DNA of 63,744 nt, counting the filler, from Reclinomonas americana ATCC 50394 (lineage: Eukaryota): NCBI GenBank assembly GCA_048213135.1. It is 20 parts of 20 records of this genome, joined end to end, with 100 filler letters (N's around TTAATTAATTAA, not from the genome) between each part and the next. Parts side by side here need not be neighbours in the genome. Positions count along the whole stretch, not along the records: positions 13,680 to 15,157 come from AFZH01024429.1; positions 15,258 to 17,953 come from AFZH01024430.1; positions 18,054 to 21,000 come from AFZH01024431.1; 17 more parts are not named here. One strand, given 5' to 3'. A program made the translations under genes and the position numbers. Below are positions 5,470 through 61,504 of the stretch, one piece after another (positions within the stretch are counted from its first letter, which is position 1; each line of letters starts with the position of its first letter). Under the pieces are notes generated by a model. It searched no databases and had not been told where the DNA came from. It worked only from the letters and a program-made list of their open reading frames with translations.

Positions 5470-5602
5470 CTCCCTCTCCCTCTCCCTCTCTCTCTCTCTC
5501 TCTCTTTTTCTCTCTCTCTCTCTCTCTCTCACTACTACTACTACTACTACGTACCTACCTACCTACCTACCTACCGTACCGTAACCGTACCGTAACCGTA
5601 CC
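5470..5602. repeat. (CT)n microsatellite degrading into pyrosequencing flow noise
   Basis: CT tract followed by TAC/TACC/GTAACC cycling. Similar contig ends at 5703-5880, 17798-17953, 18054-18133, 49357-49564 and 62221-62423. Confidence 0.9.
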
Positions 5603-5702
5603 NNNNNNNNNNNNNNNNNNNNNNNNNNNNNNNNNNNNNNNNNNNNTTAATTAATTAANNNNNNNNNNNNNNNNNNNNNNNNNNNNNNNNNNNNNNNNNN
5701 NN
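5603..5702. other. Artificial contig spacer (44 N + TTAATTAATTAA + 44 N); first of 19
   Basis: Same 100-nt design, with stops in all six frames, starts at 5603, 7360, 9392, 11296, 13580, 15158, 17954, 21001, 28228, 35316, 36677, 39329, 42299, 45482, 49565, 52584, 55626, 58376 and 62424. Confidence 0.99.
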
Positions 5703-5827
5703 CGGACGGACGACGTACCGACCCTACCGTACGGTCGGTACGTAAGTAAGGTAAGGTAGGTAGGTAGGTCGGTCGGCGACGTCGTCGTAACGTAACGTAA
5801 CTACACACTCTCCTCCTCCTCCTCCTC

Positions 5828-7459: not shown

Positions 7460-7849
7460 GATGACGACGTGCAGCACCTCGTTGGACCAGGGGACCGTGA
7501 CACCCTGAGGCAGCGGCACGCCCCTCAGGAGCGTGTTGTAGACGATGCCCGTCACGATCATGTACGAGCTCGCGCAGACGAGGAGGATCGCGAGCCAGCG
7601 CGGCTCGGGATCGGTGCTGTCGCGGTTGCGGAGCGCCCAGATCGCGGCGATGGCGAGCACGATCGCGGCCAAGAGGTTCGACTCGATCGTGAAGAAGCTG
7701 AGGAAGTTCGCGGCGACGGTGGGAATGTGGCTGCCCCAGTCGGTGGTCGCCGTGAGCCCGTTCTCGATGGAACGGCTCAGCTGCGCGATGATCGCGGCCA
7801 GGGCGAGCGCGGATGCCGCGAGTCGGGCGTAGGGCCACCAGGTCGTCAT
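7460..7849 (-). CDS. Pr6Pr-family integral membrane protein (actinobacterial), 3' truncated
   Basis: ATG at 7849 with a GGAGG RBS. Motifs NFLSFFTIESN, IVTGIVYNTLLRG and WSNEVLHVV. Confidence 0.8.
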
Positions 7850-7954
7850 TGTTCGCCTCCGCCGGTCACTGTAGCGGAACCCGTGTGTAGACCGTCGTAC
7901 CGGTATATCGATAGTGTTCGAGCGGGGACGCGCACGATGCACGGCGGAGGGCGC

Positions 7955-9391
7955 ATGAGCGAGAGCGGGACCGGTAACAGCAGCGCAGAGGCTGCGACGC
8001 GAACGCGCCGATTCCGCGGAGGCGGGCTCAGCATCCAGTCGAAGCTGCTGATCATGCTCCTCGCGGTGAGCCTGGTCTCCTCGGTCGTCGTGGGAGCGAT
8101 CGGGTTCATCAACGGCCGGCAGTCCTTGCACGACGCGGCCGTCGATCAACTCATCACGATCCGCTCGATGAGAGCGGTCGAGATCACTGAGGCGATCGAT
8201 GACGTCAAGCGCGAAGCCTCCCTGCAGTCGCGGAACCTCAGCGCGCAGACGCTCTCGAACACGATGAACGCCGCGTGGGACGAACTGCAGCAGCAGGTGG
8301 TCACCGACGAGCAGTCCGCGCAGCTCGAGGCCTACTACGCCGACACCTTCATCCCGACGCTCGAGGCGCGCGCCGGAGAGGAGTACGGCACCGAGGCGTT
8401 CATCCCCGAGTCGAACGCCGGTCGCTACCTGCAGCTGCAGTACACGACGAAGAACGAGGACTTCGACGCCGACTTCGACGAGCTGCTCGTGACCAACGAC
8501 AGCGGCGACGGCACGAGCTACGCGGCTGGGGCCGAACGATACGGCGACTACTTCACACGGCTGGTGCAGCAGGCCGGCTACGAGGATGCGCTGCTGCTCA
8601 ACCTCGACGGTGACGTCGTCTTCTCCGCCTACAAGGGCATCGAACTGGGCACGAACGTGAACACCGGTCCGTATCGCGACACCGTCTTCGCGCAGACGTA
8701 CCGCGACACGATCGCGACCAATTCGGTCGATGCGATCGGCCTGACCGACTTCGAGCGCTGGATCCCCTCGCTGAACATCCCCACGATGTGGGTCATCTCC
8801 CCGGTCGGCAACGACAGCGGCATCACGGGCGCCATGGCGCTCCAGGTGCCGGTCGACACGATCAACGCCGTGATGACCGGCAGTGAGGGATGGAAGGCGC
8901 AGGGCCTCGGCGACACGGGCGAGGTGTACCTGGTGGGTCGCGACGACCTCATGCGCAGCACCTCCCGACGTCTGGTCGAAGATCCCGAGGACTACGTCAA
9001 GCGGCTCATCAGCGGAGGGATCGCGCCGACGATCGCCAACCGCATCGGCGAGGTCAAGGGAACCGTGCTGCTGCAGCCCGTGGACACCTTCGCGGTGTCC
9101 GAGGCGCAGGCCGGACGCAGCGGCACGGTCATCGGCCGCGACTACATCGGCGGCGACAGTGTCACCGCTTACGCGCCCCTGGAGATCGAAGGGCTCGACT
9201 GGGTCATCGTCGCGCGCATCGACACCGCAGAGGCGTTCGAGCCGGTCAACGACTTCACGCGCAACGTCCTGCTGTCGCTGCTCGGCATCATGCTCGGTGT
9301 CTCCCTGCTCTCGCTGCTCCTCGCCCAGGTGTTCACCCGTCCGATCCATCGACTGGTCGGTGCCGTGCACCGCGTTGCAGAGGGCGACCTC
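7955..9391 (+). CDS. Membrane sensor protein (TM-Cache-TM-HAMP), probable adenylate/guanylate cyclase of Rv2435c type, 3' truncated
   Basis: ATG at 7955 after GGAGG. SIQSKLL followed by a TM helix, the Cache-like GLGDTGEVYLVGRDDLMRS, a second TM, then HAMP start TRPIHRLVGAVHRVAEGDL. The catalytic domain lies beyond the contig end. Confidence 0.75.
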
Positions 9392-9491
9392 NNNNNNNNN
9401 NNNNNNNNNNNNNNNNNNNNNNNNNNNNNNNNNNNTTAATTAATTAANNNNNNNNNNNNNNNNNNNNNNNNNNNNNNNNNNNNNNNNNNNN

Positions 9492-10008
9492 CGAGCAGCA
9501 GCCCGGTGATGTCGGGTCCTTCGCTCGTGGACGAGTTCATGCCGATGAGCACGACGCCGAGGAAGGCGATCGGGGCCCCGATCACGAGGGGCTTCGGGAA
9601 GCCCTCGCGCAGGAACAGTCCGCTGAAGACGACGACCATGAGCGGCGCGAGGTTCACGACCATCGCGGCGGTGCCGGCATCGAGGGTGCGCTCGGCGGCG
9701 TTCAGCGCCAGGTTGTAGACGCAGAACCATCCGACGCCCCAGACCGCGATGGGCCACCAGTGGCGGCGCTCCGGGAGACGGATGCCGTGGCGCACGGCGA
9801 GGATCGTCAGCACGACCGTGCCCACGGCCATGCGCAGGAGGGCGAGCGCACCGGGGTCGTAGTGCGGTCCGGCGCCCCGGATGCCGATGAACGCGGACGC
9901 CCAGAGGACGACGGTCACGAGGGCCGCGAGGAGGACGAGTGGACCCTGCTTCTTGGGTGCGTCAGCGCTCGCGCGAACGCCGGCGTCGCCGGATGCTGCT
10001 TGTGGCAT
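9492..10008 (-). CDS. DMT/EamA family transporter, 3' truncated
   Basis: VVLWASAFIGIR, LALLRM, YNLALNAAERTLDAGTAAMVVNLAPL, LFLRE. Confidence 0.9.
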
Positions 10009-10171
10009 CCCCCGATCCTGACAGGGGCCTCCGACATCCGTCGATTGGCCTGACCGACAGCATCCGTCGCTTTCCCGCCACGCCGGGCTCGCCCCCACCC
10101 CGACCGCGGTAGCACGACATGAACTTCGTAGAGTTAGCGGGGTTTCCCTGTGGAGCTCCTGCTCGTCCGCG

Positions 10172-11295
10172 ATGATTCGCCGTGCGATGCAAGGTCGGAT
10201 GTACGGGCGGCGGTTGATCGACCAAGCGCACGCCAGAAGCGCAACAAAGCAGCATCGTCGTAAGAACGGCCTATGGTGCGGAGGTACTCCCCCGTACGGC
10301 TACCGAGCCGAGGCAGGGAGACTCGTTCCCAATCCCGCCGAGGTCGAACGCATCCACGAGGTCGTGCGTCGCATGCTCGATGCCATGCACAGCATCGTGA
10401 CGGACTGGAACAACCGCGGCATCCAGACTCGAAAGGGCAATCACTGGCGCCAGGCGAACCTTCGGTCAATCGTGCTCAACCGGGTGATGCTCGGGGACAC
10501 GGTTCTCGGAACTCAAGCACAGTGGGAACCGATCATCGACCAGCGGACGTTCGACCGCATGAACACATTCCTCACGGACCCGAATCGCAGGTGATCCACT
10601 CTCCCGGAGCTAAGGGTGGAAAGTACAGCAAGGGTGGCGGGCTCACCGTGTGCGGAGCGTGTGGCAAGAATCTGATCACTCACATCCGGTCGGAGCCGTC
10701 AAGCAAGACGGTGACACTGGCCTGTCTCGCGCGCGTGCATGGTCCGGACCCCAGAGAACTCCCGCGTTCTACGGACTCGCGGCGGCATCGAGCGCTGGGA
10801 GGACACTGGCCGCGTGTCGATCGTGCACGACGCTCTGGAAGAAGTCGTCTGGGAAGCGTTGATCGGCAAGTTGACGCGACTCCGAGGTTCATGCAGCGCA
10901 TATCAGAGCAAGACCCTGAAACTGATGATCGTCTCGACGCACTCGAACAGGAGCGGCGCGACCTTCGAGCGCAGAAGGAACGCGGCCAGAGGGCATACGT
11001 GCTCGGAATCATGGATGAGCGCGACTCCCTTGCTGAAGTTCAGCGCATTGACGCGTTCCTGGATGCGCTCGGCAAGGAGCATGACTCTCTGCTCCGTCTC
11101 CCAATCTCGCTCGCAGACTTCGACCCGGAACAGGGGATCAACAGGCGTTCCTGGACAGCCGATCGACGTCGCGCAGCGCTCGAGGGGTTCATCAAGCACG
11201 TCGAGGTCAGCAGCTATCCAGAGGGCATGCCTCGGACCCGTCGCCGCCTCAAGAACGAATCCAAGCAGGAGTACCTCGATGACAAGTGGAAGATC
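10172..11295 (+). pseudogene. Decayed large serine recombinase (recombinase + Zn-ribbon + coiled coil); catalytic N-terminus missing
   Basis: Contains GLWCGGTPPYGY, WNNRGIQTRKGNHW, WEPIIDQRTF, VCGACG, a coiled coil and RRAALEGFIKHVEV. The motifs are spread over three frames, with shifts near 10590, 10750 and 10870. Confidence 0.8.
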
Positions 11296-11395
11296 NNNNN
11301 NNNNNNNNNNNNNNNNNNNNNNNNNNNNNNNNNNNNNNNTTAATTAATTAANNNNNNNNNNNNNNNNNNNNNNNNNNNNNNNNNNNNNNNNNNNN

Positions 11396-11852
11396 GAGCG
11401 CCGGTGTCGGTGAACCCGCGTTCTCGAGTCAGTCGCCAAAAAAGGTTGTCCTCGGACGGTAGCTCCGCGCCGTACTGGTCCCACATCTCTCGGTGGATCC
11501 CCGGTGTAAGCGCGGCAGTCTTTATCGCCTTCTGTCGAGCATCCGAGCTCGGATGATTGAGGATCTGAACCGCCAAGTCGGTCACGTTGACGGTGCGCTC
11601 GTTACCGGTGCCGTTATCTTCCATGAGCCCGAACTTCAGTAGCGCCGACAGCTGCTGAGCTGCGGGCCCGTTCAGACTTGCGTAACCCCATAGGCCCGGT
11701 AGGACTGAAGTCGAGACGGCGTACTGCCTCTCCTTCGCGTAAACCTGCCCGACTCGTTGGACGGCCTTCGCCAGGTCGATGGACGGGTACGCGGGACTCC
11801 GGCCCTTGGGCCTCTTAGTAGGGGGCGCCACGGGGGCGGTGACATCGGTCAT
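11396..11852 (-). CDS. Conserved hypothetical protein, probable winged-helix (RSPAYP...WGY...SALLKFGL), 3' truncated
   Basis: ATG at 11852 with an AAGGAGG RBS; clean ORF running to the contig edge. Confidence 0.7.
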
Positions 11853-11971
11853 GAGAGACCTCCTTGATGTCAGTGTAGAGCATCTAGCCAGCCTGTAGTG
11901 GACATGTTCAAAAATTAGTAGCGCCATGCGAACACAAGCCCTGTTTTGTGCTGTACACTGGAGGTACAAAC

Positions 11972-12003
11972 AGAAACGCCTCGGCTGGAGCCGAGGCGCT
12001 TCT
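11972..12003. terminator. GC-rich hairpin; intrinsic terminator, better on the minus strand
   Basis: CGCCTCGGC-TGGA-GCCGAGGCG. On the minus strand it is followed by TTTCTGTTTG. Confidence 0.65.
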
Positions 12004-12011
12004 TAAACAGA

Positions 12012-12081
12012 GGGGTACGCAGGTTCGCCGGGTAGGTCTCCAAAACTGGCCGCGACGGGTTCAACTCCCGTGTACTCCACC
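12012..12081 (+). tRNA. tRNA-Trp(CCA)-like element with a reduced D-arm
   Basis: Acceptor stem GGGGTAC/GTACTCC followed by ACC; T-arm ACGGG-TTCAACT-CCCGT; anticodon loop CTCCAAA in the stem GGTAGGT/ACTGGCC. Only about 12 nt lie where the D-arm should be. Confidence 0.6.
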
Positions 12082-12239
12082 CTTATTGTAACAAGCTCGA
12101 CCCCTTGGCGCATCAGTCCGTGATGCGAGCACGTCGCGAGCCCTGGAATGTCACACGCGATCCTGCATTGGACACCTCAACACAGGCACCGAGCATCGGT
12201 TCGCCGAGTTACGGTCGTCGCTCCACTATCCTGACCGTC

Positions 12240-13364
12240 GTGGGTGACGATGAAACCAAGTGGTATGACCGAGCGCTGGCGTCTAGCGTGGTGGGCGGCC
12301 TCACAGTAGCGGCCTTGGTATGGCTCGTGCCTTTGGTGATCTCTGAAGCTACCAAGGCGAAGGTCCCGATCTTCGTGTACCTCGTCGTCGCGGGCGGCGC
12401 CTTAGTGATCGGCTCGCTGGCGATACCTGTATGGCGACGCACCACATGGGGGAACCTCTGGAGAATACTCAAGTGGCTCACCGCGATCCGGCCCGTCACT
12501 ACAGCAGGGCGGGATGCACTCAGAGATGCAGGCTACGCAAGACATGAGAAAGAGGTTGCCGATGCTCGGAAGCGAGCCAAGCAGCCCCGCTGGAGCGTCA
12601 GCGCCAAGGACCGCATCTTCGGCGACATGGCTCTCCATTGGCTGACGAATCACGGCTACGCCGCTTTCGACGTGCGGCTGACAGCGCACCCTAACGAATT
12701 TGCCTGTGATGGAGAGGTCTTCTTTCGCGGTTCGTTTGGAAGCGCCACGGTCGGCGCTTCCGTCGGCAAACTCTTCCGCGGCGCGCCAACGGAGAAGGGC
12801 GCCCTCGACGGAGTCACCTTCGTGGTCAGCTGGTTCGACGAGGATGGCAACTCGTACGAGACCACCGTCTTTATGCCCCCGGAGGAGATCCGAAGCGGTC
12901 GCGACAGCGCCAGCGAGGAGGCACGCAGCGAAGGATGGAAGGAGGGATACGCTCAAGCCAAAGAGCACTATGAACGGGCTATTGAAGAAGAGGCGAAGAG
13001 CAACCTTCCCAAGCTTGTCCCCCCGGCTCCGAGGTGGCATCTCGAGGAAACGGGCGGGGTCGTCGTGCTCGATGGTGGTCCGATCGAACTCACGCTGACG
13101 AATGCAATTCCTGAGAGCATCGCGCTCGGCGTGCGCATCGATGGTGTCAACAACGTTCGAGTAACCGACGCGGGCTACTGGAGCGATCTGTCCGGCAAGG
13201 TGTCAGTCACGTTCGCAGCTGAACTCAGTCGGGACGGGGTTTACGAGGGATCTATGCTGCGGCTGTCCTACACCGACTATTCCGGCGAGGAGCGGTACAT
13301 GTCCTTGTATCTCGAAGCGTTCGATACCTACGACGGCGCATCGAGTCCTGAGGTCTCCTTATAG
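12240..13364 (+). CDS. Hypothetical 2-TM membrane protein with two repeated beta-rich domains
   Basis: Probable leaderless GTG at 12240 just after TATCCT. Two N-terminal hydrophobic helices, then an internal repeat PRW...LTN...A..VR...G...S[WY].D..G. Confidence 0.7.
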   Translation: MGDDETKWYDRALASSVVGGLTVAALVWLVPLVISEATKAKVPIFVYLVVAGGALVIGSLAIPVWRRTTWGNLWRILKWLTAIRPVTTAGRDALRDAGYARHEKEVADARKRAKQPRWSVSAKDRIFGDMALHWLTNHGYAAFDVRLTAHPNEFACDGEVFFRGSFGSATVGASVGKLFRGAPTEKGALDGVTFVVSWFDEDGNSYETTVFMPPEEIRSGRDSASEEARSEGWKEGYAQAKEHYERAIEEEAKSNLPKLVPPAPRWHLEETGGVVVLDGGPIELTLTNAIPESIALGVRIDGVNNVRVTDAGYWSDLSGKVSVTFAAELSRDGVYEGSMLRLSYTDYSGEERYMSLYLEAFDTYDGASSPEVSL

Positions 13365-13579
13365 GCCGCGCGTCGGACGCTCGTCGAGTACCACCGCCTG
13401 CCCTTGGGTGAGGCGATGCCGGCCGAATTGAGGTCGTCTGCGATCGCCTGAAGCGTTAGACCTCTGGCCCGCATGGCAGCGATCTGGTCAGCGACTTCGG
13501 CAGGGACGGCGCTTTGCGGACCGGGAACGGCGCCGCGCTCACGCTTGGCGACGGCAAGAGCGGCTTGGGTACGTTCGCC
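13328..13579 (-). CDS. Serine recombinase/resolvase, C-terminal part (5' truncated)
   Basis: Hand translation: GERTQAALAVAKRERG...MRARGLTLQAIADDLNSAGIASPKGRRWYSTSVRR, ending in TAG at 13328-13330. Not in the ORF track. Confidence 0.85.
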   Translation of the reverse strand, partial: GERTQAALAVAKRERGAVPGPQSAVPAEVADQIAAMRARGLTLQAIADDLNSAGIASPKGRRWYSTSVRRAAYKETSGLDAPS

Positions 13580-14154
13580 NNNNNNNNNNNNNNNNNNNNN
13601 NNNNNNNNNNNNNNNNNNNNNNNTTAATTAATTAANNNNNNNNNNNNNNNNNNNNNNNNNNNNNNNNNNNNNNNNNNNNTCACCTTGCAACTGTCTGCTT
13701 GTGCCGCCACACAAGTAGGCAGTCGGAGGTCGGAGTGCGCTGTAACAAGCGCACGTTGCGTTGTTCGCGGTAGCGTGTAAGTCTGGTGGTGAAGAGCGTG
13801 CGGCCCACCGGCTTCGGGCGGACGTTGTCGCCGACTTAACGCAACACCGACCCCACTGTGCTCGGGTACCTCGTACTGCCACCACAGTCGAGGGAACCTG
13901 TGCACGGCGCGGGGCAATGTCGAGATCGACCGAGGCTGCAGCACTTTCATGGCGGTGGAGTCTGCAGCTCTCGACTTGCGCCTTTCAGTGAGACATCCGG
14001 CAAAGCACTCGTATTGTGTAGCCGGTTTCGCGGATCCGGAGTTTTCCTCTTTATCTCATCGTCATCTGTCTCCTGCCCGCGGGCACAACACGAGTGTAAA
14101 CCCTTTCTTATGGACGAAGGACGAGCAAATGATTGATTGCTGACGTGACCCAGC

Positions 14155-15257
14155 ATGTCCGAGTCTGCTGTCTTCAACTGTGCAGTGTGTAACCGCCGCA
14201 CCATTGTACTCCGCGGCGGGCTGTCACTTGCGAACGCCCGGGCCATCGGTGTCGATGCGGATGCCGCAGGGCACTGGGTGAAAGCAACCATCATTGAATT
14301 GGCATTGATGGACGACATTGCTCCCGCTGAAGACGCGACTGTACATCATGTGAGGGACTTTCGGGCAGCGGTGTTATACCAACAACAGTTCCGCGACGCA
14401 GCGAGCCGCAACGCAGAGTCGCGCGTTGTCTGGTGTTCGCACTGCTACAACACCTTCATGTCGAAAGTCGACTCGATACGCGAGTGCTCCGCTGGCAACT
14501 GCTCAGTGCTTGTGGCCCCTGCGACAGCTCCGCCCACCCGCCCCCGAGAGTCGTCGAACGGAAAGAGTCGCAGGAGACAGATTGCTGCAGATCGCGGTCG
14601 ACCTTGCGAGCATGACGACGACCGCTGTTTCCGTGCGTTATTGTGTGCGTGCCCCGTCAAATTTAAAGTTGTTGATGTACTCATCGCTCCTTGCTATGAT
14701 GCAGAGACTAATGCGCACACTGCGACGAATGACGCTGGTCGCCTTCTCGTATTCTGCTCCAAGCAGTGTCTGGACTATCACAATCGTCCTCAGCCACCAC
14801 CGCCTCCAGCCCATCCGGCCATTCCAGCAGAGCGGTCGACGACAGCCTTTCGCGCTTCGTTTGCCAAGAAGTTCTCGCCGGAACAAATTCGCCGATTCGT
14901 GCAAACAGCCGGGAACGCGTGTGCTGAGTTCTCGAAGAGTTGTGATCGTGAGATCGTCCGGCTCTCTGACAGTTGCGCTCCAAGACACTATTTGTCCAGA
15001 CGACGCGCGCGCGCGTCTCACACTTGTGTTGTCGATGCAGATCAGAAACCTGGAGACGAGGAAAGGATTGAGTGTCTTCAGGAGATGCTCAAAGCCAGCA
15101 ACGTGCGTTGGCGCGCGGCGTAAACGCATATTGTGTCGTCCGTCTCTCTCTCTCTCTNNNNNNNNNNNNNNNNNNNNNNNNNNNNNNNNNNNNNNNNNNN
15201 NTTAATTAATTAANNNNNNNNNNNNNNNNNNNNNNNNNNNNNNNNNNNNNNNNNNNN

Positions 15258-15289
<32 letters not shown>

Positions 15290-17796
15290 CTCTCACTCAC
15301 TCTCGCTCTCTCACTCTCTCGCTCCCTTGCTCTCGGTCGCGCTCGCTCTCCACCTTCTGCAGCTGTCGACCTTGACTCTGCCGGCCCCACGCTCACCGCA
15401 GCTTATGCGTACCGGGCCGCGTGCAGGTCACACGTGCTCAATTGTACGAAGCTTTTGGATCTCCGGAGCCCAAGCGCGGTCGGAAACGATTATCGATACA
15501 TGATCGTGGCCACCGTATGGTGCAAGCGGCATTGGACCCCGCTGCAGCTGCTGCGGAAGCCGACGCGCGCGCGTCGGACATCGGCGCAATGGCTGTAGTT
15601 CAGCTGTTCCGCGCGGAAGAACGAGAACGGAAACAGAAGGAACGCGCGCTGACCAGCAACCACCGCCTCAAGACCGAGATGCGGCAACTCAAGCGCGACG
15701 CCAATCTCGTCGTCAGGGAGTACAATGCGGTGATAGACGCTGTGCGCAAGAGCGATTACAGGGTCCTCAATGCGCACCAGCTCGCTTTAACTCCTTCAGA
15801 AGGTGAGCGACGACACCACTGTTTTCTTGATCGCCGTGCACCTCACAGTGTTTTGTGTTGTCCATGTTCTTCTTGCTCAGGCGCATTCTTCAAGTGCCAC
15901 ATGGGGCTCAGCGACGCGAAATACAGCAACTTCAGGGGTACGAAACTCGTCGGCGGGCCGTTCCCACCACTCAATCTTATCAAGACGCATGAGAAGGCGA
16001 CAATTGCGAAGATCGGAAGGATAGTGGATGCGACGCTTCCCATTCACCGCTACCAGGTGAAGGGAGAAAGTAGGACGGTCACAGTCGGACATATCCGGCT
16101 CGCGTACCTGCACAGTGGCGGTGTTGCGCCTCCTGTCGGTGGCGATGCTGCAGAGCAAGCGCCCGCTGGGGTGAACGCCGGAGCGGAGTTGCGCAGGTGT
16201 TCGTGGAATCGTTTGTGCGTGTGTTTGTTGCTGACTGCTTGAGTGTGATGATCGCTGCGGTTGTGTGTGATGTAGCCGTGGCGCAGCAGGTGGCAAGTCT
16301 GTTGTTTTCGGGAAGCACCATGTCACCGTCGGCGTGAAAGCTCCGTCACAGAAAGAGCTTCAGGTTCGCGCTGTAGCGGACGTGGAGACTCGATTTTCGC
16401 CGCAGAGAAGCCTGATTCTCCCACTGTGGAGAGTGGAGAACTTTAAACCCCACGTGTCGAACTGTTTAATTCTCCGTGTGACGTCAGATGCCGCTGTGAT
16501 TGCACCGTTGAAGACCAGCGCGATGGCCGGTGAACACGCCATGGACGGCATTTTGCGGATGATGGGTGTGACTTGCCTGGGCGCAGTGACGTACACGCAA
16601 GGAACGGTACACAGTCCATTCCATCTCCCTCTTCTGGCTGTCTATCTGATGAAAGGGGAGTTGTTTGAGTACATTCACGCTGTGAACGGCGTCCTTCCGT
16701 GGCGACTGTGGTTGCAGACATGGCAGAACTCTTGGCTCCGAGCACCGGAGTTCATCAGAAATCTGTACTCTCGTAGTGTGCGTCTGTTTGTGAACGGCGA
16801 CTTGAAGCAACTGATGGCGATGCTGGGAAAGCGACACTGTGTATTCTGCCCGTACTGCCTTGCCCTCCACGTTTTGCGCTTCACGGACCGATCCGGTGGT
16901 GTTGCATTTCACTTCTTCAACCACTTTCGTCGACATCAGTTTGACATACGTGAGGCATTTCGGAGGCCGCATGTGTATCTTGCAGCAGAGTGCTTCGACT
17001 TTGAGCTCGATCTGACGGAGGGTGCTGGTGACCATGTGCTGAAGGAGAAAGACGGTGAACTGGACGAACATTTTCTGAAGTGGGCTGCGTCTTTGCGGGG
17101 TCAACCAGTTGCAGTGACTGCGGGGCGCAACTCGCGTCTTAAAAACGCACAGGAGGCGCTCTATGACGTGAGCCACCCTGCCACTCCAGCCACGACCTTC
17201 TGGTCTTCTTTACGGACCCCCGTCGCCCTCTGTCATGACGATGCGCGTCAGGCTTTCAGTGATGCTAAACTCGAGCTGCACCACTTTGTTCCGGACGTCC
17301 TTCATCTCGATTTGCGAGTGGCGGAGCACGTGCTGGCGGAGGCCGCCAAGCTGTGCGCTGCTCGTCTAGATCTGTTCCGGTCGGAAGAGGCCACCACGCG
17401 GGGAGGTGGACGGGATGCAGTTTGCAAGTACGTCGACTACTTGAACGAGAGATTTCACAATCTGTGTGGAATGCGCCAGTTGGAGTTGCGCGCGACGCCT
17501 TGTGATTGCATGTAGTGTAAGCGCGCTGATGTGTGCTCACTCCCAATTGTTGCGTGAACAGATTTGAGGTCACTGCACCTGCATCAACTGCCGCATCGTC
17601 GTATTCTCGTTGTCCGATCACGGAGGTGAATTTCAGCTCGCTTGCAAGTCACGCACTGCCCAATATGTTGCACAGCAGCAAAGAAGCGGAATTGAAGGTT
17701 CGTCGACTGAAAGATATATCTGCGCTGATAGTGCTAGCCGTGGTAGTTGAGTACACACCTGCTCGGAATACTGGCGCAGAATCGGCCCTGGCCGGG

Positions 17797-17853
<57 letters not shown>

Positions 17854-18089
17854 TACGTACGACGACGACGTGTAGTGTACGTACCGTACGACGTCCGTCC
17901 GTCGGTACCGTACGACGACGACGACCGTACGTTACGAACGACCGACGACGCGANNNNNNNNNNNNNNNNNNNNNNNNNNNNNNNNNNNNNNNNNNNNTTA
18001 ATTAATTAANNNNNNNNNNNNNNNNNNNNNNNNNNNNNNNNNNNNNNNNNNNNACGGACGACGGACGTACGTACGTAGACGACGTAGAC

Positions 18090-18135
<46 letters not shown>

Positions 18136-19583
18136 CTGAGACAGGCGATATTTGTGTTGGTTCGCACACTTTGCTCGCGCATTCTCCTCATAAGCGTGCT
18201 GTGGTGCGCAGACGTTTCTCGAGACAGCTTTTAGTCTCGTGCCAAGCGTGCATACTCTATGCGACGTGACGCTCCGAGGCATCAAATTGATGCGCTCCCT
18301 CCAGGAAACAGCTCGCCACCGTGTTCATGAGCCGTGGACGGAGGATTCGCGACAGGAGGAGCTGGGCATGCTGGACGAGTTTATCAGGCTGCGGGAGACC
18401 TTCTACGAAATCGTCTTTAATGGCGACGTTGAGGATGTGAGGCCAGTCGAATGGATCACAGCAAGCGTTCATATCTTGTGCGTAGCAAGCGAGGATTATC
18501 GCACTTGTTCTCTGTAACCGTGTATTGTGCACTCATATTGTCTCCCCGTGTGCCACATGGCGCACCGCGGCCGCGTGCACTGGTGGTGCAGTTGGGACCA
18601 CTTGCCTCAATTCGCAGTTGATGTGGAGCACGCATTCGCCGTGATCAACTGCGCCCAGTACGGCATCGAAGCGCGGCTGCAGTACTTGCGCCCAGTCGTC
18701 AAACGCGCCCCACATCAAGCTCTCTCCAAGCCGCTGGAGAAAGATTCGGAGGTAGTGCAAGCTGTTTTACATCGGCTCCAAGACGAGCGGTATCGCACGC
18801 TCCACCCATTGTTCTTTCGTGCCTGGCACGGTATGGCAACTGCATCGCAGTGGATTGTCTGCAGCGCTGCTATTGCTGACCTTCTGCGCGTGCAACCGCA
18901 TTCGTGAATTCAGCGGAGGACCGCAAGGTGGTGCTGCGAAGCGTGAAGAGTGGCATGAAGCTGCCAGTCCGCGAACGATCAGTGGGGCTTGCTGCCGGGT
19001 ATCCAGATTCGCAGGCACTGGCAGTCCACGAGCACGATGGCGAACTGCCAGACGGAATGGAAGACCCGGATGGCAATCGCATGATTCTGCCGGTGTTGGA
19101 GAATGCAGTCGTCGCTGACTTTGCTCTTGGTGATGAAGCCGGTGCCGGCGAGGCTGCAGCTGGCAAGAAGCGTGGTGAGAGGACACACTTGCGTGTAATT
19201 GCGCGTGGTTGCTGTCAACTCATTCACGCTTCCTCCTTGCCGTAGGCGGGTTCTCCAATAGTGCGGCGTATTACGTGCTGACCAGTCAGACAATCGCAGC
19301 AAGTAGCGACAGACCGATGAGAGTCGATCGGTATGTCAAGCGCGAAGAGACTATGGCCAGGAACAGGCAGCTGCAGCGCGAAGCAAACCAGGCGGGAGCG
19401 CAGCAACTCGTACTCGCGATCTCTGAACAGGAAGAGGACATCGCAGAAATGGATCTGCTTCAAGAGATGGCGGACGATGCTGATGCGCTCGACGGCGAGG
19501 AATACGGGGAGGGACAGGAGGAAGAGGAAGAAGAGGGAGAGGATGAGGGAGAGGGAGAGGGGAGCATGGCAGTCGATGATTGA
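14155..19583 (+). CDS. RAG1/Transib-like DDE transposase, about 1330 codons, 10 predicted exons spanning three contigs
   Basis: Exons 14155-14947, 15041-15102, 15427-15802, 15881-16196, 16276-17478, 17562-17697, 18212-18477, 18592-18830, 18914-19174, 19246-19583. All introns are GT-AG with consistent phases; total 3990 nt. Motifs: LTPSEGAFFKCHMGLSDAKY..PFPPLNLIK, RVTSD, VNGDLK, FCPYC, PDVLHLDL, ITASVHIFWDHLP, QYGIEARLQYLR. Confidence 0.8.
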
Positions 19584-19643
19584 AGTTTGAATTTCTGCAT
19601 TGATTTCTTGCTTTCGAAAGCAGTACACTACGCCAACGCTGTT

Positions 19644-20667
19644 TCAGTGGTAACGACCGTCGAAATCGCTGAACATTCCCTGGCGCAGCTGGAACTTCGC
19701 AGTGAAGCTGCGCATTCGCGGGTTGTAGATGAACTCAATGTCTTCGTCGAGGTTGATGGCAGCGAACGCGCAGCCGACCAGTCGGCCGTATGCGAACCAC
19801 TTGTCGCCGAAGATGCGCGCAAGAGCAGGGCTAAGGGGGCTAAAGCACGCACACAGGCCACCAACGCCCTCGGTCCACTGGTCGAGGGGAAGCAGCGCAG
19901 CAAACAGGGAGTTCACGGCGCCACGGCTAGTCAACTTGATGGTGACAAATGCAGACTTCGGAGCATACCGCTGGCCAAGACAGCGACGCAAGCACATGAG
20001 GAAGCGCTTGCGAAGCTGGTTCGCCATGTCTGTGGCGTCTGCCCGGTGGAGGCTCTGTGCACACACGAGGCATAGGTTAATTGTGAGGTCACTACCGGTG
20101 TAATCTTCGTGCGTGCGTTCGTCGAGCGCACCAACTCGCGCTCCAGGGCCGCATTCCGCGCCTTTAAAGCCTCCAGCGCTGCTTGCGACGCAGCGTAGCC
20201 AGTGGCTATGTTCGCAAGAACGTGGGAGAGTGACGAGACACATTGGCCGTTGGCGACGCTCGGCTGCGCCGCTGCACTTGCTGAAGAGGCAGACGCATGG
20301 GAAGGACCGCGCTCCGCTGCAGGCCCGTTGGGTTGCTGAGGAGCGCTAGTCACGGCGGCGCCGACGCCAGGAACAGCAGGCTGTGAGAGTGGAGTGATTA
20401 TCATCTAAAATGCACTGGGGTGCATTTGCACACATGCACGATTAATCATCTCACACACACCTTGGCCGCGGCGGTGGGCGCGACGGGAGTAGCTGCTGCT
20501 TTCTGTGACTTCACAGTCGCGGCAGGAGCGCGGCGCGGCGCAGCAGCCGCGGCAACAGCTCGCTTCTTGGCGCGCTCACTGCGACGAGCCGCGAAGAGAC
20601 GCGCACGCGCAGCTTCCCGCGCGGCGTTGGCTCTCAGGGCACTGGCACGCTTAGAGGTGAGGATCAT
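19644..20667 (-). CDS. Unknown protein of about 300 aa (basic Ala/Arg N-terminus, coiled coil, globular C-terminus), convergent with the transposase
   Basis: Predicted exons 20667-20461, 20404-20096 and 20054-19644 (GT-AG, phase 0). Its stop lies 60 nt from the transposase stop. Confidence 0.6.
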
Positions 20668-20850
20668 TGTGCTCTCGGAGAAGTGGGGACGCGAGTGGAT
20701 GAGCGGAAGAGTCCGTTGTCTGTCAGTGCTCAGTCGGCCGCATTGAAAAAATTGGAGGACAGACTCTTTTAACTGTCGGCGGTCGGCTGAATTCGACGAC
20801 AAAGCGTTGTTAAGGGGGGGCACGCAGTCAGAACAAGGCTCGCCAGAGGC

Positions 20851-20930
20851 CACGGTACCCCAAGCAAATAATGAGAAAGAGTGCAGTACCCCACGAGGAT
20901 GAAATTTCGGTTCAACGCGCGCACAGAGTG
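20851..20930 (-). mobile_element. Candidate right terminus of the RAG1/Transib-like element
   Basis: Read inward it begins CACTCTG (heptamer-like), then CGAAATTTCA and two TGGGGTAC repeats, and it abuts microsatellite DNA. No matching left TIR or TSD was found. Confidence 0.25.
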
Positions 20931-20943
20931 AGAGACCGAGAGG

Positions 20944-21000
<57 letters not shown>

Positions 21001-35478: not shown

Positions 35479-36676
35479 GCACACCAACCATCAGCGCATT
35501 GACGCCGCTGTGGGTGCCTGCCACATCCAACTCGTTCCCAGTGCAACTGGATGGGTCAAACTTGGAGGAGTCACAGTACCTGCAAGTGCGTGTGGATTCA
35601 TCAGCTGTGCCGACGTGGCGAGTGTCGACATCGCGTCTGGAGTTCCTCGCCCCGGCGCGGTCTGTCGGAGGCATAGCCACTGTCGATGTCACATACAATG
35701 GCGTGGACTACTCAGCGACCACGTCGCTGACATATTTGGGTGAGTTCACACACATGCACACACACACTCTCTCACACGCACTCGCACTCTATCATGATGT
35801 GCGTGTCTGGCTGATGGTGCGCTTGCTTGTTGTGTAGCTGCCTCCACGTTGACGGCGGTTGAGCCTGCTGTGGGGCCAGTGGGAACTGTCCGCGTGCGTG
35901 GCACAAATTTCCCCGCGGCATCCTTCGGTACCAAGTGCACGTTTGACAACTGGGAGGCGACGCCAGTATCGATCTCGAGCAGCGAACTCATCTGCAACAC
36001 CACTTCATCGACCAGCAGTTTTTCGACTGTCGGCGTCAACGTGGCCGGCAACTCCATGACACAGCAACGTGGTGGATTCGCGCGGCGTCGTGCGCCATTC
36101 GTGTCGCGGGCGTACCAGACGATGCAGTCGTGGTCAGGAGGGCGTGGTAATGTTGTGCTTTCTGGCGGCGAGTTTCGTAGTGACGGAATAGCTTGTCAGT
36201 ACGGTGCAAGCGGCCGCGGCAGCGCTGCGTTTGTGTCTTCGGTGGTAGCGGTGTGCTCGCCGCCTGAATCAAACGTGCCAGTGTCAGAGACAGTGCGGCT
36301 GTCGACGAACAGCGGCTACAACGTGACGGAGACAGCGGTTCGTGTTCGTAACGTGGACCTGCCGACGACGGTGCAGAATGTAACGCTGCCGGAGGTTGGT
36401 GGATCGACAGTCTCTTTGCAAGTGACGACCGGCAGCGCGAATTCTTTGGCCTACGCATTCGGTGACCGCGACGTGTGGTGTCAGATCGATGGCAGTACGT
36501 TTGTGCGCGGGCGGAGCATGCTGCCGCACAGCAACTTGATTCAGTGCACAGTTCCACGACTGACTGCTGGTAGTCACGGTCTCGCGCTTGCCAGCAGAGC
36601 ATTTACGCAGATGTCGACGGCGGTGGTGTCATTGCAGATCCTGTCCACCAACGTCACCGACCCAGGCACTGTAGCT
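35479..36676 (+). CDS. IPT/TIG-repeat cell-surface protein, internal fragment (exons 35479-35739 and 35838-36676)
   Basis: PTISALTP..LDGSNL..VDVTYNGVDY; TAVEPAVGP..VRGTNF..CTFD..SSSELIC; phase-1 GT-AG intron at 35740-35837. Confidence 0.8.
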
Positions 36677-36776
36677 NNNNNNNNNNNNNNNNNNNNNNNN
36701 NNNNNNNNNNNNNNNNNNNNTTAATTAATTAANNNNNNNNNNNNNNNNNNNNNNNNNNNNNNNNNNNNNNNNNNNN

Positions 36777-39328
36777 ATGCATCGGGCGGTGAAGGAATTA
36801 CTCTGCAAACTGGTGGGTCGGCGACACTCCCGTGGCCAGCTGGTGCTGCCAAGGCGCAGGTGGTGTGCTGGTTTGGGCGTTCCGTCGTGAACCGCGGATG
36901 GGTTGTTGACAGCGGTGGAGTGGTGTGTGACTCTGGAGTCGGTGGCCTTGGTGCTGGATACACGGCGGTTGAGGTGCAGTGGACGAATGATGCATGGGGT
37001 ATGGAGTCATTGTTGACTGGGAGTGCAAGCGTTCATGTTGTTGAGGCGCTCGTGGTCAGAGATTCTCCGTTTGTTGGTGGCGTTCTGTGCCGTGAATGTC
37101 GTGTTTCTGAGGCAAGTGGACAGTATAGGCGGCGTCGGCAGGTTGTGCTCGTCGGCGGGCAGTCGCTGCGCAGTGAGTCAGGAGGGTTTGGCCAGCCGGT
37201 TTTGTGTGTCTATGGCGGACGGGTGGCAACCGCGAGTGCAGAGGTGTCGTCGGTGATGCGGGCTTGCCTGCTTCCTGGCATAGACGATGAGACAAGCCGT
37301 GCTACAGACAGTAATGTCGGCGGCAGCGTTGCACTTGGACTGGCTGAGGGGACTGGCGATCGGGACGGTGGGTGGCAAGCAGAAGCGCGGTGGACAAGCG
37401 TGTGGTTGACTGTGTCTGAGCGTGTGAGGCTCTCTGACTGGAAGCTGGTAAATTTCGGGAGCGGCCATATTCGTTTGGAGCTGCAGAGCGTGAATGATGA
37501 TGTCATGTACGGGCGTGTTCGTTGCGTGTTCGGTGGACAGACGGAGGTTGACGCGGCAGTTGTTGAGCGACGACTGGGGACTGTGGTGCTGCAGTGTGAG
37601 GCACCACTGATTAAGGAGAATCGGGCGTTGACGTTTAGCACCGTAGGCGGTGATGTTGATGAGTTTATCGGCGACGGTGTGTACATGGCCAACTGGCAAG
37701 TGAATGTGACTGGAATTGTTGGGGGCAGCGGCGAAGCTGGCGGTCAAGTTGTGAGCGGCGACGGTGTTGTGTGCGCTGTCGGATCGCAGATTGTGCCTCT
37801 GTGGCAGAGTGCTCTGCTATCTCAGGATTACAGTGTTTTGGTGGACGGTGTGGCCGATGCTGTTTCGCGACTGGGTGTGGGTGCAGGTTTCCGTGTTGTC
37901 GAAGTTGACGTCTGGGGAACTGGGGTATCGTTGCTTGCGTTGGAATGTCACGAAGAGGCGCTTGTGTTCCAGGTGCATCCAGATCGGCTGACGTCGAGCT
38001 CCGGAGTCCGTACGCCGGTGACTGTAGTGGGTGTGAACTTTGCGAGGATTGAGAGCGAGGCTGCGGCACAGCAAGCCAGTTTCATGTGTCGGTACGGTGG
38101 AACCGGATCGGGCGGCGAGTCGCGAGGTCGATGGGTATCGAGCACCACGGCGGTGTGTAACGAGGGACCCGCTGTGCGTGAGTGCGACGAAACGGCCGAG
38201 GGGAAGTCGTCTATTGTTGGTGTGGAGGTCAGTAGCGACGGGTGGATGTGGAGCACCAGTAGGATAGGTACACGGTTGCAGCGTGCGTGCGGCATGGCAG
38301 AGGGACTGACCATCGGCTCTGGAAGCGCGTTGACTGGTAGTCGTGGAGAGCGCATTCGTCTGGATTTCCGACGACAGTTGCAGTCGTGGGAAGCGTGGTG
38401 GTGTGTTGCTGGTGGCAAGACACTGATTTCCAGTGAGGTGGTTGACGGATCGGTCGAGTGCGTGCTCCCAGAGCTTGCGGCAGGAGTGTATCACGTGGGC
38501 CTGTCGGCGTACAGTCGTAGTGTTCTGAATGGTGACGACGCAGGCTATGTCGCTGTTGTTGTGAGCGCGAGCACGAACGTCACAAGTGTGTTGCCGAGTG
38601 TTGTGACGCAGTCGTCGGGTGCGTTGCTGTATGCGACTGTGGACGGAATTACGGCGCTTGACGTTGAGTCGAGTCGGCGACATGTGTTTGTGGGTGCGAG
38701 TGCTGTTGTCGTCGGTGACGTCGTGTTGGGCAGTGGTTTCTTCGGCGGCAACGGAGTGAGTGGTGGCGGCTTGTTGCGTGCTGGTGCATCGGTGCTTCAA
38801 GTACACTTGCCGGCGGCTGTGAGCGACGGGTTTGCGACTGTGGAGGTCGGTATGGTGGAAAGCAGTAGCGGACGTGTGACGAGCAACGGTGTGCAAGTGG
38901 AAGTTCGAGAAGCGGCTGCAGTCAGCGGGTTGCTGCCAGAGCGAGGTAGTAGCACTGGTGGGACGCTTGTGAGCATTATGGGACGAGGACATCACGGTAG
39001 TGACGATGGGCGAGCTTCATGTGTGTTTGGCGGACGCCGTGGAAGCAACGACTACGGTGCAGTGTTGTCGTCGAGATTTAGTGTGTGTGTGAGTCCTGCG
39101 CGTGTGACTGGCGGCAAGGGTGAAGTTGGCCTGCATGACGGATCTCGTGGTGAGGGTGGTTGGGGGACGGCGCCTGGCGCGGTGTTTGTTTGGGAGGATG
39201 TTGCTGCAGGCGCATATCCGCCTGCGCAGTATCTGAGTGCTGTTGGCGGTCAGGACTTGCGGATTGCAGTGACTGTGGGGGGTGAACAAGTCGTCGGCTC
39301 GGTCGTAGGCAAGTGTCGTTTTGGTGGC
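36777..39328 (+). CDS. IPT/TIG-repeat cell-surface protein, internal fragment (open through the whole contig; probably the same gene as the previous fragment)
   Basis: About 850 codons without a stop. Repeats include QVHPDR..VTVVGVNF..CRYG..VSSTTAVC..VEVSSDG and LLPERGSSTGGTLVSIMG..CVFG..CVSP. Confidence 0.8.
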
Positions 39329-39428: not shown

Positions 39429-39488
39429 GCGAAGGGGGTGGAGTTGCGCCAGTCCTATACCCGGGTCGGCAAGCTCGCGCTGACCTGA
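39429..39488 (+). pseudogene. IS5-family transposase remnant
   Basis: AKGVELRQSYTRVGKLAL followed by a premature TGA. LRQSY.RVGK is an internal IS5 transposase motif. Confidence 0.55.
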
Positions 39489-39541
39489 ACCGATATGCCT
39501 GCTCCGAACCGACACCGTTTCACGAAGCTCGAAAGGACGAA

Positions 39542-39778
39542 ATGGCGGCCGAGATTCGTCTGCAGATTGAGCAGTCGAAGGCGACACTAGAAGAACATGT
39601 CGGCCGCCTTTACGAGCGTACCCGGCCGGCGGACGGCCCCGGGGCGCTCGCCCCTTCAAGGCGAAATCGAATACTTGCTCGCTCGAAGGATCGGACGCAC
39701 GGCATGGCCGCGATCATCGGGCTGGAAGCCTGGTCACAGGGCGCGCAGTTGTTGTTCGTTACGGAAACGCCGGGCTGA
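39542..39778 (+). CDS. Hypothetical protein (78 aa)
   Basis: ATG preceded by AAGGA; fills the intergenic gap. Confidence 0.4.
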   Translation: MAAEIRLQIEQSKATLEEHVGRLYERTRPADGPGALAPSRRNRILARSKDRTHGMAAIIGLEAWSQGAQLLFVTETPG

Positions 39779-39843
39779 CCCATTCACGAAGGATCCTTGG
39801 AGGTCACAGACAGTGACCTCGCGCCGGGCTCCGATTTCACTTC

Positions 39844-40962
39844 TTACAAGATGCCCCAGGCGCGATAGCTCCGCCTCCCCGTCATCTCGCGAACACCAAG
39901 CTCCGTGATCAGATTGAGCGCACCTCGCGGCGTCACACCCGCCACTTTCGCGACCATGGCGGCCGAAACGATCGGCCGTGACAGAATCAACTCGATTGCG
40001 GCCGGAAGGCTGCTGGTCGAGCGGCGGCCGCGGAGCTTGCGCTCCATAAGCTGGCGAGCCTGATCGAGCCGGGCGATCTCCTTCATGCCCGCCTCCGCCG
40101 CGAGGCACATCGCATCGAGGAAGGCGAGCAATCGCTTAGTCCGATCGCGAGAACGCCGCCTCTCGCGAGATACGGCTTTCAGCCCGACGTTGAGCGCAGG
40201 CAAATGCGAAACGACCTTGCCCCGGGCCCGTAGAACGCCAGCGGTGAGTTGTCCCCCGAGCCAGTGCAGCCGCTGCAGCGGCTGCATGATCTCCCAAGCG
40301 TCAAACAGAACCGCAGCCGACAGCACCGGTGACAGAGCAGCTGCATCCCTTCGCACATCGTGCCATCGGGACAGCCGGTCCTGTTCGTCCCACTCTGCAT
40401 CGCGAATGACGAGCTCGCCCACGACGAGCGATGACTTCTCGGGAACGGTAGCCGGCGCCGGCGTGTTGATCCCGTCCAGAACGCGCCGCGAGCGTTCGAG
40501 CATCGCATCAATGTGTGCGAGCTCGCGAGAAAGCGGATCATCGTCTTCATCAGGAGGTGCCTCGCCCTCCCCTCCCCTCTCATCAGCAACACCTGGTGCT
40601 TTCGGCGAGGTGATGCGCTCGGCACCCGTCAGAGCCGACATGCCGGCTTCGGAAACCGCCCACCCGGGCTCCGCGCCAACGATGCGACGTCGCGCGCGAA
40701 GGATGCCATGGCCGATGACCAGTTCATGGGTTGGCGATCGGATATCCATATGGGCGTCATGAAAGACCAGGTCCTCGATGTGGAGGAGCTCGCCCGATAT
40801 CCACATGCTGGCGGCCGCATCGAGGAAATGCCCGCGCTCCGCGAACCCCTCCCCGACCGGGCTTCGACGCACGATTTCATCGAGCCGGGCTAGTTGGTCC
40901 TCAGCCCGCGCCACGGCAGGAAGCAGAGCCTGAAGCGGCAGTTCGCCGATTTCATAAATCAT
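39844..40962 (-). CDS. RHE_PE00001-family protein (Fic-like N-terminus, DUF1612, C-terminal HTH) of rhizobial plasmids
   Basis: AEDQLARLDE, EDLVFHDAHMDIRSPTHEL, LGVREMTGRRSYRAWGIL. Confidence 0.85.
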   Translation of the reverse strand: MIYEIGELPLQALLPAVARAEDQLARLDEIVRRSPVGEGFAERGHFLDAAASMWISGELLHIEDLVFHDAHMDIRSPTHELVIGHGILRARRRIVGAEPGWAVSEAGMSALTGAERITSPKAPGVADERGGEGEAPPDEDDDPLSRELAHIDAMLERSRRVLDGINTPAPATVPEKSSLVVGELVIRDAEWDEQDRLSRWHDVRRDAAALSPVLSAAVLFDAWEIMQPLQRLHWLGGQLTAGVLRARGKVVSHLPALNVGLKAVSRERRRSRDRTKRLLAFLDAMCLAAEAGMKEIARLDQARQLMERKLRGRRSTSSLPAAIELILSRPIVSAAMVAKVAGVTPRGALNLITELGVREMTGRRSYRAWGIL

Positions 40963-41245
40963 TGTAAACGCGCCGCTTCGCTATCGATACAGAAGCTAAA
41001 ACAACTTTCATTTCCGTCACATCGATATCTTTCCTTCGTACTCGTGATGGGTAGAGCTCGCTGGCCCTCCGGATTGAACAGAGCTATCTCGGGCGTGCCT
41101 CAGATCGACGAGAAGCCCCGATTTCATTGGGTTTTCGAGTGGCCAACCCGCCGGAAATAACACCTAGAGACGTTTACAAACGATCGGTTATCCGTATCTT
41201 CTGCATTTGGAAAATCGCCGCTCGGCGTTCTCTCAGGCGCTCCAA

Positions 41246-42202: not shown

Positions 42203-42213
42203 GCTGGTCCTCA

Positions 42214-43452: not shown

Positions 43453-43519
43453 GTTCCTTTACCTTTTGTTAGGCAAAAGAATCCGGCTCGCCAAAACGGC
43501 ACTGCGTTCGACGTGACTC

Positions 43520-43548
43520 TTGACAGCGATTCGCGGAAGTGTGATTCT
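43520..43548 (+). promoter_or_regulatory. ctRNA promoter
   Basis: TTGACA-17 nt-GATTCT, matching the conserved repABC ctRNA promoter. Confidence 0.85.
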
Positions 43549-43554
43549 CAGGCT

Positions 43555-43606
43555 GCTTACACGAGAGAAGGGCTTCCGGAATTCGTTTCGGGGGCCTTTT
43601 TCTTTT
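43555..43606 (+). ncRNA. repABC counter-transcribed RNA (ctRNA)
   Basis: Antisense in the repB-repC intergenic region, after the promoter; hairpin followed by a T-tract. Confidence 0.85.
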
Positions 43607-43611
43607 GCGGG

Positions 43612-44604: not shown

Positions 44605-44682
44605 ATTGGCACCTCCGAAATGCATTTAAGGTTCTGAGTTTCAATGAGAAAAGCTCGATCTGTACGGCTGACAATTCCGTCA

Positions 44683-45448: not shown

Positions 45449-45481
45449 CGTATAACGTTCGTATAGCATACATTATACGAA
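45449..45481. other. 454 paired-end (loxP-containing) linker remnant
   Basis: CGTATAACGTTCGTATAGCATACATTATACGAA at a contig end; it cuts repA off mid-gene. Confidence 0.9.
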
Positions 45482-61122: not shown

Positions 61123-61504
61123 GATGATCTCTGCAGCAGTTGCATGAGGTACGTTGCAAGCAAGCCATCGTGATGCACAATTAAGCTCAAAACACCATGT
61201 GAGAGAGATATTTAGAATGAGATAGGGGCGTTTACACGTGCGAGAGGAGTAGTGAGTGATCATGAGTGAGAGAGAGAGAGTACATGCATGTGTGAGTGAG
61301 AGAGGTGAAGGAGTGCGTGTGAGAGTGTATGTGAGTTAAGATTTAGAGTCAAAGACTTCTGCAGCACTCTAAGCTCTGCAGATCTGCGCTTGCATGGCCT
61401 CTCTCATGATCATGACCCCTCCTGGCCTCTATCACACGCATGCGCAACGATTGCAGCTTGAAGACAGGAGTGTGTTCTCCAACACACTGCAGCGTTGTCG
61501 GATC

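Follow-up and report, generated by a model that had tools for sequence, protein, structure and literature searches.

RAG1-type recombinases are not restricted to animals. An active RAG-like transposon has been reported from the unicellular pelagophyte alga Aureococcus (Tao et al., PMC9435367; the report is repeated in a passage of PMC10462144), and the protist record of RAG-like elements in print consists of this one clear case and of fragments (PMC9435367). In mouse RAG1 the landmark residues follow each other as D600-108-D708-19-C727xxC730-207-H937x4H942-20-E962, as numbered in the part of PMC4914335 that treats them. For the Transib transposases, the passages on residues in preprint 10.64898/2026.08.26.747230 give a distance between the two Asp (D1 and D2) of 99 residues in HzTransib (D125, D224) and 108 in Nozomi (D232, D340), and a distance from D2 to the Glu of 211 (E435) and 213 (E553), respectively. 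Section 7 of Kapitonov and Jurka (PMC1131882) gives D2-E distances of 206-214 residues for Transib and 253 for RAG1. The CACTA, Mirage, Chapaev and Transib lineages all have the C(2)C and H(3-4)H motifs; the classification part of PMC12730594 places these lineages in one group, the CACTA-Mirage-Chapaev-Transib (CMCT) clade, to which Plavaka, ESTA and Lanisha are also assigned. Here we describe a gene of Reclinomonas americana ATCC 50394 (assembly GCA_048213135.1), positions 14155-19583 of the + strand in the stretch analysed, whose product carries the same landmarks. This stretch (the window) has 63,744 bases in total and consists of 20 short contigs of 1.2-7.1 kb each, joined by 100-nt N/TTAATTAATTAA/N linkers. 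The RAG1-like candidate gene lies on contigs 6-8 (13680-15157, 15258-17953 and 18054-21000).

It appears reasonably probable that the central ~500 residues of the encoded protein constitute a very diverged RNase-H-fold Asp-Asp-Glu transposase core of the CMCT clade; a kinship to RAG1/Transib is plausible, if unproven. The residues and their order can be read directly. In the 1371-residue model they form the chain D618-104-D722-16-C738xxC741-350-H1091x4H1096-23-E1119, and this is the landmark order of the RAG1 and RAG1-like proteins (mouse RAG1, BbeRAG1L of ProtoRAG, AanRAG1L of Aureococcus). The spacings, in residues, compare as follows.

D1 to D2: this protein 104, mouse RAG1 108, HzTransib 99, Nozomi 108
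D2 to CxxC: this protein 16, mouse RAG1 19
CxxC to HxxxxH: this protein 350, mouse RAG1 207
HxxxxH to E: this protein 23, mouse RAG1 20
D2 to E: this protein 397, mouse RAG1 254, HzTransib 211, Nozomi 213

Four of the five spacings in the chain are close to those of RAG1; the exception is the insert that separates CxxC from HxxxxH, which is longer (350 residues as against 207). The putative acidic triad D, D, E occurs in order, with a D1-D2 distance near the published ~100-108 residues. The CxxC shortly after D2 and the HxxxxH shortly before E have the positions of the RAG1 ligands and may form a zinc site. Three features of the protein recall Transib (HzTransib, Nozomi): D1 and D2 lie ~100 residues apart, the zinc motifs are C(2)C and H(4)H, and a long insert precedes the Glu.

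The gene is a real spliced eukaryotic gene, best explained as a single nuclear gene of a poorly sampled lineage. Long open reading frames (ORFs) succeed one another on the + strand across 14149-19583 (324, 288, 414, 159, 107, 129, 121 and 134 residues, stop to stop). Nine exons with GT..YAG joins give a reading frame of 4116 nt, i. e. 1371 codons with a single terminal stop, whereas the two alternative frames of the spliced string contain 46 and 47 stops. The codon periodicity GC1>GC3>GC2 is found in eight of the nine exons. It is because of the consecutive long ORFs, the single stop and this periodicity that we regard the gene as real. Five of the eight donors start with GTG and the acceptors are all CAG or TAG. 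The encoded protein has ~1330-1371 residues. The features of the gene are the following.

14155-15102, + strand, exon 1: 316 codons with the start codon, Cys-rich (CxxC at residues 9 and 94, Cx4C at 111, Cx3C at 201); within the ORF 14149-15123
15103-15426, + strand, intron 1: phase 0, donor GTGCGT, acceptor CAG; contains the join 15158-15257
15427-15802, + strand, exon 2: basic motif KRGRKR at 15472-15489 (residues 332-337), likened in the original prediction to the AT-hook of RAG1
15803-15880, + strand, intron 2: 78 nt, in frame and stop-free
15881-16196, + strand, exon 3
16276-17511, + strand, exon 4: ~411 codons, candidate catalytic core
16487-16489, + strand, D1 in exon 4: D618
16799-16801, + strand, D2 in exon 4: D722 in G-D-L-K
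16847-16858, + strand, CPYC in exon 4: C738/C741 within H-C-V-F-C-P-Y-C, with H734 and C735 just before
17294-17305, + strand, D-V-L-H in exon 4: D887-x2-H890
17562-17697, + strand, exon 5: 45 codons, less certain than any other exon
17698-18211, + strand, intron 5: phase 0; contains the join 17954-18053
18212-18477, + strand, exon 6: ends with the first His of H-x4-H (H1091, 18470-18472)
18478-18591, + strand, intron 6: 114 nt, donor GTGCGT like intron 1; its removal creates H-I-F-W-D-H
18592-18830, + strand, exon 7: second His H1096 (18599-18601) and candidate catalytic E1119 (18668-18670) in Q-Y-G-I-E
18914-19174, + strand, exon 8
19246-19583, + strand, exon 9: acidic tail with 27 D/E in the final 60 residues; TGA stop

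Both contig linkers within the gene thus fall inside introns (introns 1 and 5). The first is flanked by (CT)n on each side, the second by (GA)n and ACG-rich repeats whose order on one side mirrors that on the other. The contig pairs 1/2 (5578-5727) and 15/16 (49540-49690) also have like short repeats at end and start, of ACCGTA type and GTAGAG/GA type. Since the pairs 6/7, 7/8, 1/2 and 15/16 all meet in like repeats, the file order of the contigs seems to follow a scaffold order in which the assembler broke at microsatellites, and contigs 6, 7 and 8 are very probably neighbours. One could argue that the gene model is an assembly artefact, with contigs that are not neighbours or with exons hidden in the gaps: only the file order, the matching repeats and the continuous frame speak for adjacency, bacterial contigs stand between the others in further parts of the window, and many alternative splices keep the frame. 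Yet the same repeat types flank both joins, the pairs 1/2 and 15/16 behave alike, and strand, order and composition are continuous. Moreover, D, D and CxxC on contig 7 are followed by HxxxxH and E on contig 8, as expected. Hence an artefact is highly improbable.

Further indications come from a language-model neighbour search with exon 4. Ten of the 30 neighbours were clusters carrying RAG1_RNase_H, RAG1_ZnC2 and RAG1_ZnH2. The remainder were 19 unnamed clusters, one of them mostly from Basidiomycota, and one DUF1280 cluster (scores 0.92-0.94). RAG1 thus accounts for 10 of the 11 named neighbours and is the only named family among the close ones. This suggests more than a random list, in which RAG1 neighbours are not expected. 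The neighbours weigh in favour of kinship because the same family and the three domains had been predicted from the motifs of exon 4 alone. The local context of each landmark fits as well. A strict pattern, in which the chain with RAG1-like tolerances (the loose pattern) must also have a hydrophobic run ahead of each Asp, D-x-K, and an aliphatic residue plus Pro behind the second His, was found in none of 20000 shuffles of the protein; it was composed after the sequence had been seen, so that this count is no clean probability.

The alternative is that we are dealing with an unrelated lineage-specific protein, which would have its D...D...CxxC...HxxxxH...E chain and its RAG1 neighbours by coincidence. 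The neighbours of a family named beforehand and the fitting local contexts, the latter assembled post hoc, speak against this, and we consider it somewhat unlikely. Against a transposase core, on the other hand, weigh observations on the chain, on the splice behind H-x4-H and on the missing relatives. When the protein was shuffled 5000 times, 359 of the products (~7%) contained the loose pattern, and 99 of 5000 still did when the Cys-rich exon 1 was removed; the chain alone is therefore not beyond chance. The D2-E distance of 397 residues, or ~354 in the longest model that skips exon 5, is far beyond the range of Transib and RAG1, and an insert so much longer than in known members speaks for coincidence. 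The motif KRGRKR lies 286 residues before D618 and does not have the Pro of the GRP core; the nonamer-binding-domain motif is GRP(R/K) in the passage of PMC10462144 that defines it. In this the protein differs from RAG1, as it does in its N-terminus, where exon 1 gave no Pfam or PDB match above noise and no recognised RING or NZD domain.

The gene model has weak points of its own. Exon 5 shows no coding periodicity, and 38 frame-keeping GT..AG pairs skip it, giving frames of 3765-3987 nt. Intron 2, being in frame and stop-free, is another weak point. For intron 6, 23 GT..AG pairs keep the frame, and just one of them (18477/18592) yields H-x4-H; this choice has the best-looking donor, GTGCGT. 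The original prediction had taken the H-x4-H motif as support for the gene model. As the motif depends on one out of 23 splice choices, it does not independently prove the intron 6 splice. The frame length of 3990 nt proposed there has likewise to be replaced by 4116 nt, and none of the 38 alternatives without exon 5 yields 3990. For the rest the prediction was largely right: the ORFs on three contigs do join through GT-AG introns into one frame with a single terminal stop, and both assembly gaps lie in repeat-bearing introns (1 and 5) with the same repeat type on either side. The motif coordinates were reproduced throughout (D at 16487, D of GDLK at 16799, CPYC at 16847-16858, DVLH at 17294-17305, H-IFWD-H across 18477/18592 and E at 18668).

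No sequence or profile method used by us found a relative. The Pfam scan, with a library that contains PF12940 (RAG1) and from which the newer PF26100 is absent, assigned no family to any exon at E<=1 or E<=10, PF12940 included, and NCBIfam gave no relevant family. With phmmer, exon 4 as a whole, two pieces of exon 4, and exon 7 matched no RAG1, RAG1L or Transib chain among all PDB chains at E<=10, and a search of 1.84 billion cluster representatives returned 0 matches at E<=0.001. Word-index searches for relatives also returned 0. Scanning metagenome contigs for loci that resemble exon 4 or exon 7 brought up no relative, and neither did scans of viral and prokaryote genome contigs. The protein has no detectable sequence or profile similarity to RAG1, and phmmer found no Transib relative either. 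The neighbour search with exon 4 itself falls into the band that the tool labels 'chance hits or distant relatives' (recognition 1914, below 2300; 156-164 shared features, below 170), and no usable match came from exons 2-3, where the nonamer-binding and pre-RNase-H part is supposed to lie. As no relatives were found, there was no alignment for structure modelling. Single-sequence AlphaFold models reached a mean predicted local distance difference test score (pLDDT) of 35.2 (411 residues) and 33.0 (166 residues), too low for reading a fold, and Foldseek with the 411-residue model (pLDDT 35.2) gave noise only, with no match at E<=0.001. Both models are thus uninformative. Nor is the orphan status special to this gene, because only 4 of the 84 long ORFs from the contigs of this organism match Pfam at all.

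These blanks lower the claim to membership; a distant relationship is still compatible with them. The Pfam result is not decisive because true Transib transposases can lack an InterPro domain match. In the account given in preprint 10.64898/2026.08.26.747230, the bona fide transposases Nozomi and homologues have no InterProScan match, yet HHpred scores them at 100% against HzTransib, BbeRAG1L and RAG1. In having no InterPro or Pfam match our protein resembles Nozomi.

If a transposase core is accepted, the question is to which lineage it belongs. The C(2)C...H(3-4)H pattern of the CMCT clade is contained in the chain of this protein. Because the pattern is common to the whole clade, the designation RAG1/Transib is narrower than the evidence allows, and the chain, as far as residues can tell, supports the CMCT clade and not RAG1/Transib in particular. 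A core of CACTA-Mirage-Chapaev (CMC) type, be it Chapaev, EnSpm/CACTA, Mirage or Plavaka/ESTA/Lanisha, instead of the Transib/RAG1 lineage would be a sub-case of the CMCT core proposed here. The original prediction had kept the Chapaev/CMC group as a caveat, and the sharing of the zinc motifs, documented in the motif section of PMC12730594, bears it out. The 316-residue Cys-rich N-terminal region is the reason for retaining the CMC side: according to the portion of 10.64898/2026.01.24.700457 dealing with zinc fingers, Chapaev transposases have N-terminal zinc-finger domains and none were detected in Transib, so that the zinc-finger-like N-terminus would be a Chapaev-like trait. The one DUF1280 and the 19 unnamed clusters among the 30 neighbours also leave room for it. 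However, the named neighbours are RAG1 and not EnSpm-type families, no Pfam transposase family (EnSpm-type ones included) was matched, and H(4)H and D1-D2 spacings equal the RAG1/Transib values. We regard a CMC-type core as unlikely. The available flanks contain no identifiable element ends of the CMCT type, i. e. 5'-CA..TG-3' termini with target-site duplications of 2-5 bp.

The Transib/RAG1 side is somewhat favoured within the CMCT clade; this modest preference is due to H(4)H, to the D1-D2 and D2-Cys spacings and to the named RAG1 neighbours. That the core indeed stands on this side is possible, but we would stop short of calling it probable. The protein differs from Transib in its D2-E distance (397 residues as opposed to 206-214), in being about twice as long, and in its 316-residue Cys-rich N-terminus. 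Taken together, the RAG1/Transib-like reading of the original prediction survives in part. The ordered acidic triad, the C2/H2 ligands and the RAG1 neighbours speak for it. It finds no support in a profile, pairwise or structural match or in the D2-E distance of 397 residues, and no terminal inverted repeats, RAG2 partner or further copy were seen in the sequence available.

The surroundings of the gene were inspected for signs of mobility. The flanks available measure 475 nt upstream (13680-14154) and 1417 nt downstream (19584-21000). No inverted repeat of at least 9 nt links the two, although more distant ends are possible; at least one such repeat arose in 187 of 200 shuffles. Among the inverted repeats listed for this region, the 25 longest were without exception linkers and microsatellites. 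The heptamer CACAGTG, as in recombination signal sequences (RSS), occurs 19 times against 17.2 expected, i. e. at chance frequency, and in contrast to Transib no RSS-like CAC-heptamer terminal inverted repeats and no 5-bp target-site duplication were visible in the short flanks. In the 63.7-kb window no second copy of the gene was found, self-matches only. Two 389-residue ORFs elsewhere in the window (47898-49064 and 50023-51189) had been considered as duplicates and were rejected, as they are unrelated.

Immediately downstream lies a convergent neighbour.

19644-21000, - strand, convergent neighbouring ORFs: stop ~60 nt from the stop codon of the gene

This neighbour is another orphan with no Pfam, PDB or homologue match. 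Unlike RAG1-like elements, the gene has no RAG2-like partner that we could find adjoining it: neither the three ORFs of the neighbour nor two upstream ORFs matched any Pfam family at E<=1, RAG2 and kelch included, with 1.4 kb available downstream. A further difference is the presence of eight introns, whereas AanRAG1L is encoded by a single exon (PMC9435367).

The locus looks like a resident, intron-bearing single gene and not like a recognisable mobile copy. Because such a gene is packed here against a neighbour, with no recognisable mobile copy, we think more readily of a transposase that was domesticated or immobilised than of an active element. On the opposite view the gene would belong, as its transposase, to an active autonomous transposon, and the short contigs would end before the ends of this transposon or just at them. 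This view can point to the intact frame with all candidate catalytic and zinc residues present, to the shortness of both flanks, and to the active RAG-like elements known in a protist (PMC9435367). It has difficulty with the missing inverted repeat between the flanks, which nearly all shuffles produce by chance, with the chance frequency of CACAGTG and with the single copy in the window. Nor would eight introns, a convergent stop codon 60 nt away and a neighbour whose three ORFs match neither RAG2 nor kelch be expected of it. Thus we consider an active transposon very unlikely.

If the central part is a CMCT-type core, its mode of action may be envisaged by analogy with known systems. For DNA nicking and transesterification, two Mg2+ ions would be bound by the triad D618, D722 and E1119. 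A single Zn2+, shared by the Cys pair C738/C741 and the His pair H1091/H1096, would staple the large domain inserted between D2 and the Glu, and the basic stretch together with the N-terminal Cys-rich region might contribute DNA binding. The most far-reaching idea is that of a deep, previously unsampled branch of RAG1/Transib type that was fixed as an intron-bearing host gene of a poorly sampled protist, which would be an independent, non-animal domestication of a RAG1-type nuclease. This is rather unlikely at present; if it were true, the enzyme would have a novel N-terminal module rich in Cys, and its insertion domain would be both enlarged and stapled by zinc.

A RAG1-type gene in a protist is not new in kind, because RAG-like protist elements have already been published (PMC9435367). 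New would be how far the protein has diverged, together with its enlarged insert and N-terminal module, and a setting that resembles that of a host gene. Should the kinship hold, the gene would encode a very divergent, apparently immobile nuclease of RAG1/Transib/CMC type in a lineage with almost no database relatives, and would bear on the age and spread of this recombinase clade and on the frequency of host capture. Should it not hold, the case would call for caution, since a D..D..CxxC..HxxxxH..E chain arises by chance in ~7% of shuffles (359/5000) of a protein of this size.

Not all of the window is of eukaryotic origin. Intron-like structure is found on contigs of 53-59% GC, whereas the bacterial contigs have a higher GC content.

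7460-13579, 39429-45481 and 52684-58375: bacterial contigs, 61-66% GC

Their products are RepC, RepB/ParB, a ParA-like ATPase, a resolvase, a protein with DUF1612 and HTH_13, alkaline phosphatase, a metallo-beta-lactamase fold, EamA and a Cache domain. Since the high-GC contigs carry bacterial genes, with a repC stretch that shares 87% identity with a plasmid of Bosea sp., the assembly is a mixture of the eukaryote with an alphaproteobacterial companion or contaminant. Contig 14 ends (45452-45481) with one arm, the spacer GCATACAT and the start of a second arm, truncated by the contig end. This terminal site adjoins the ParA-like gene of the repABC-type contig. We take it to be loxP-like; it may be engineered or of P1 type.

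Rfam and tRNA scans of the window gave no match. On the eukaryote side, only two clearly conserved pieces were found, 47686-48255 and 59606-61335. They comprise an exon of nucleoside diphosphate kinase and two ORFs of a split CobW/HypB/UreG-type GTPase domain. The ORFs of contig 9 have a weak beta-trefoil match (PLH30-type). On two adjoining contigs at 35798-39328, IPT/TIG domains (E 2.6e-12 and 1.3e-7) are present in long ORFs of the + strand, and strong GC and AT skew occurs near 36-39 kb and 48-50 kb.

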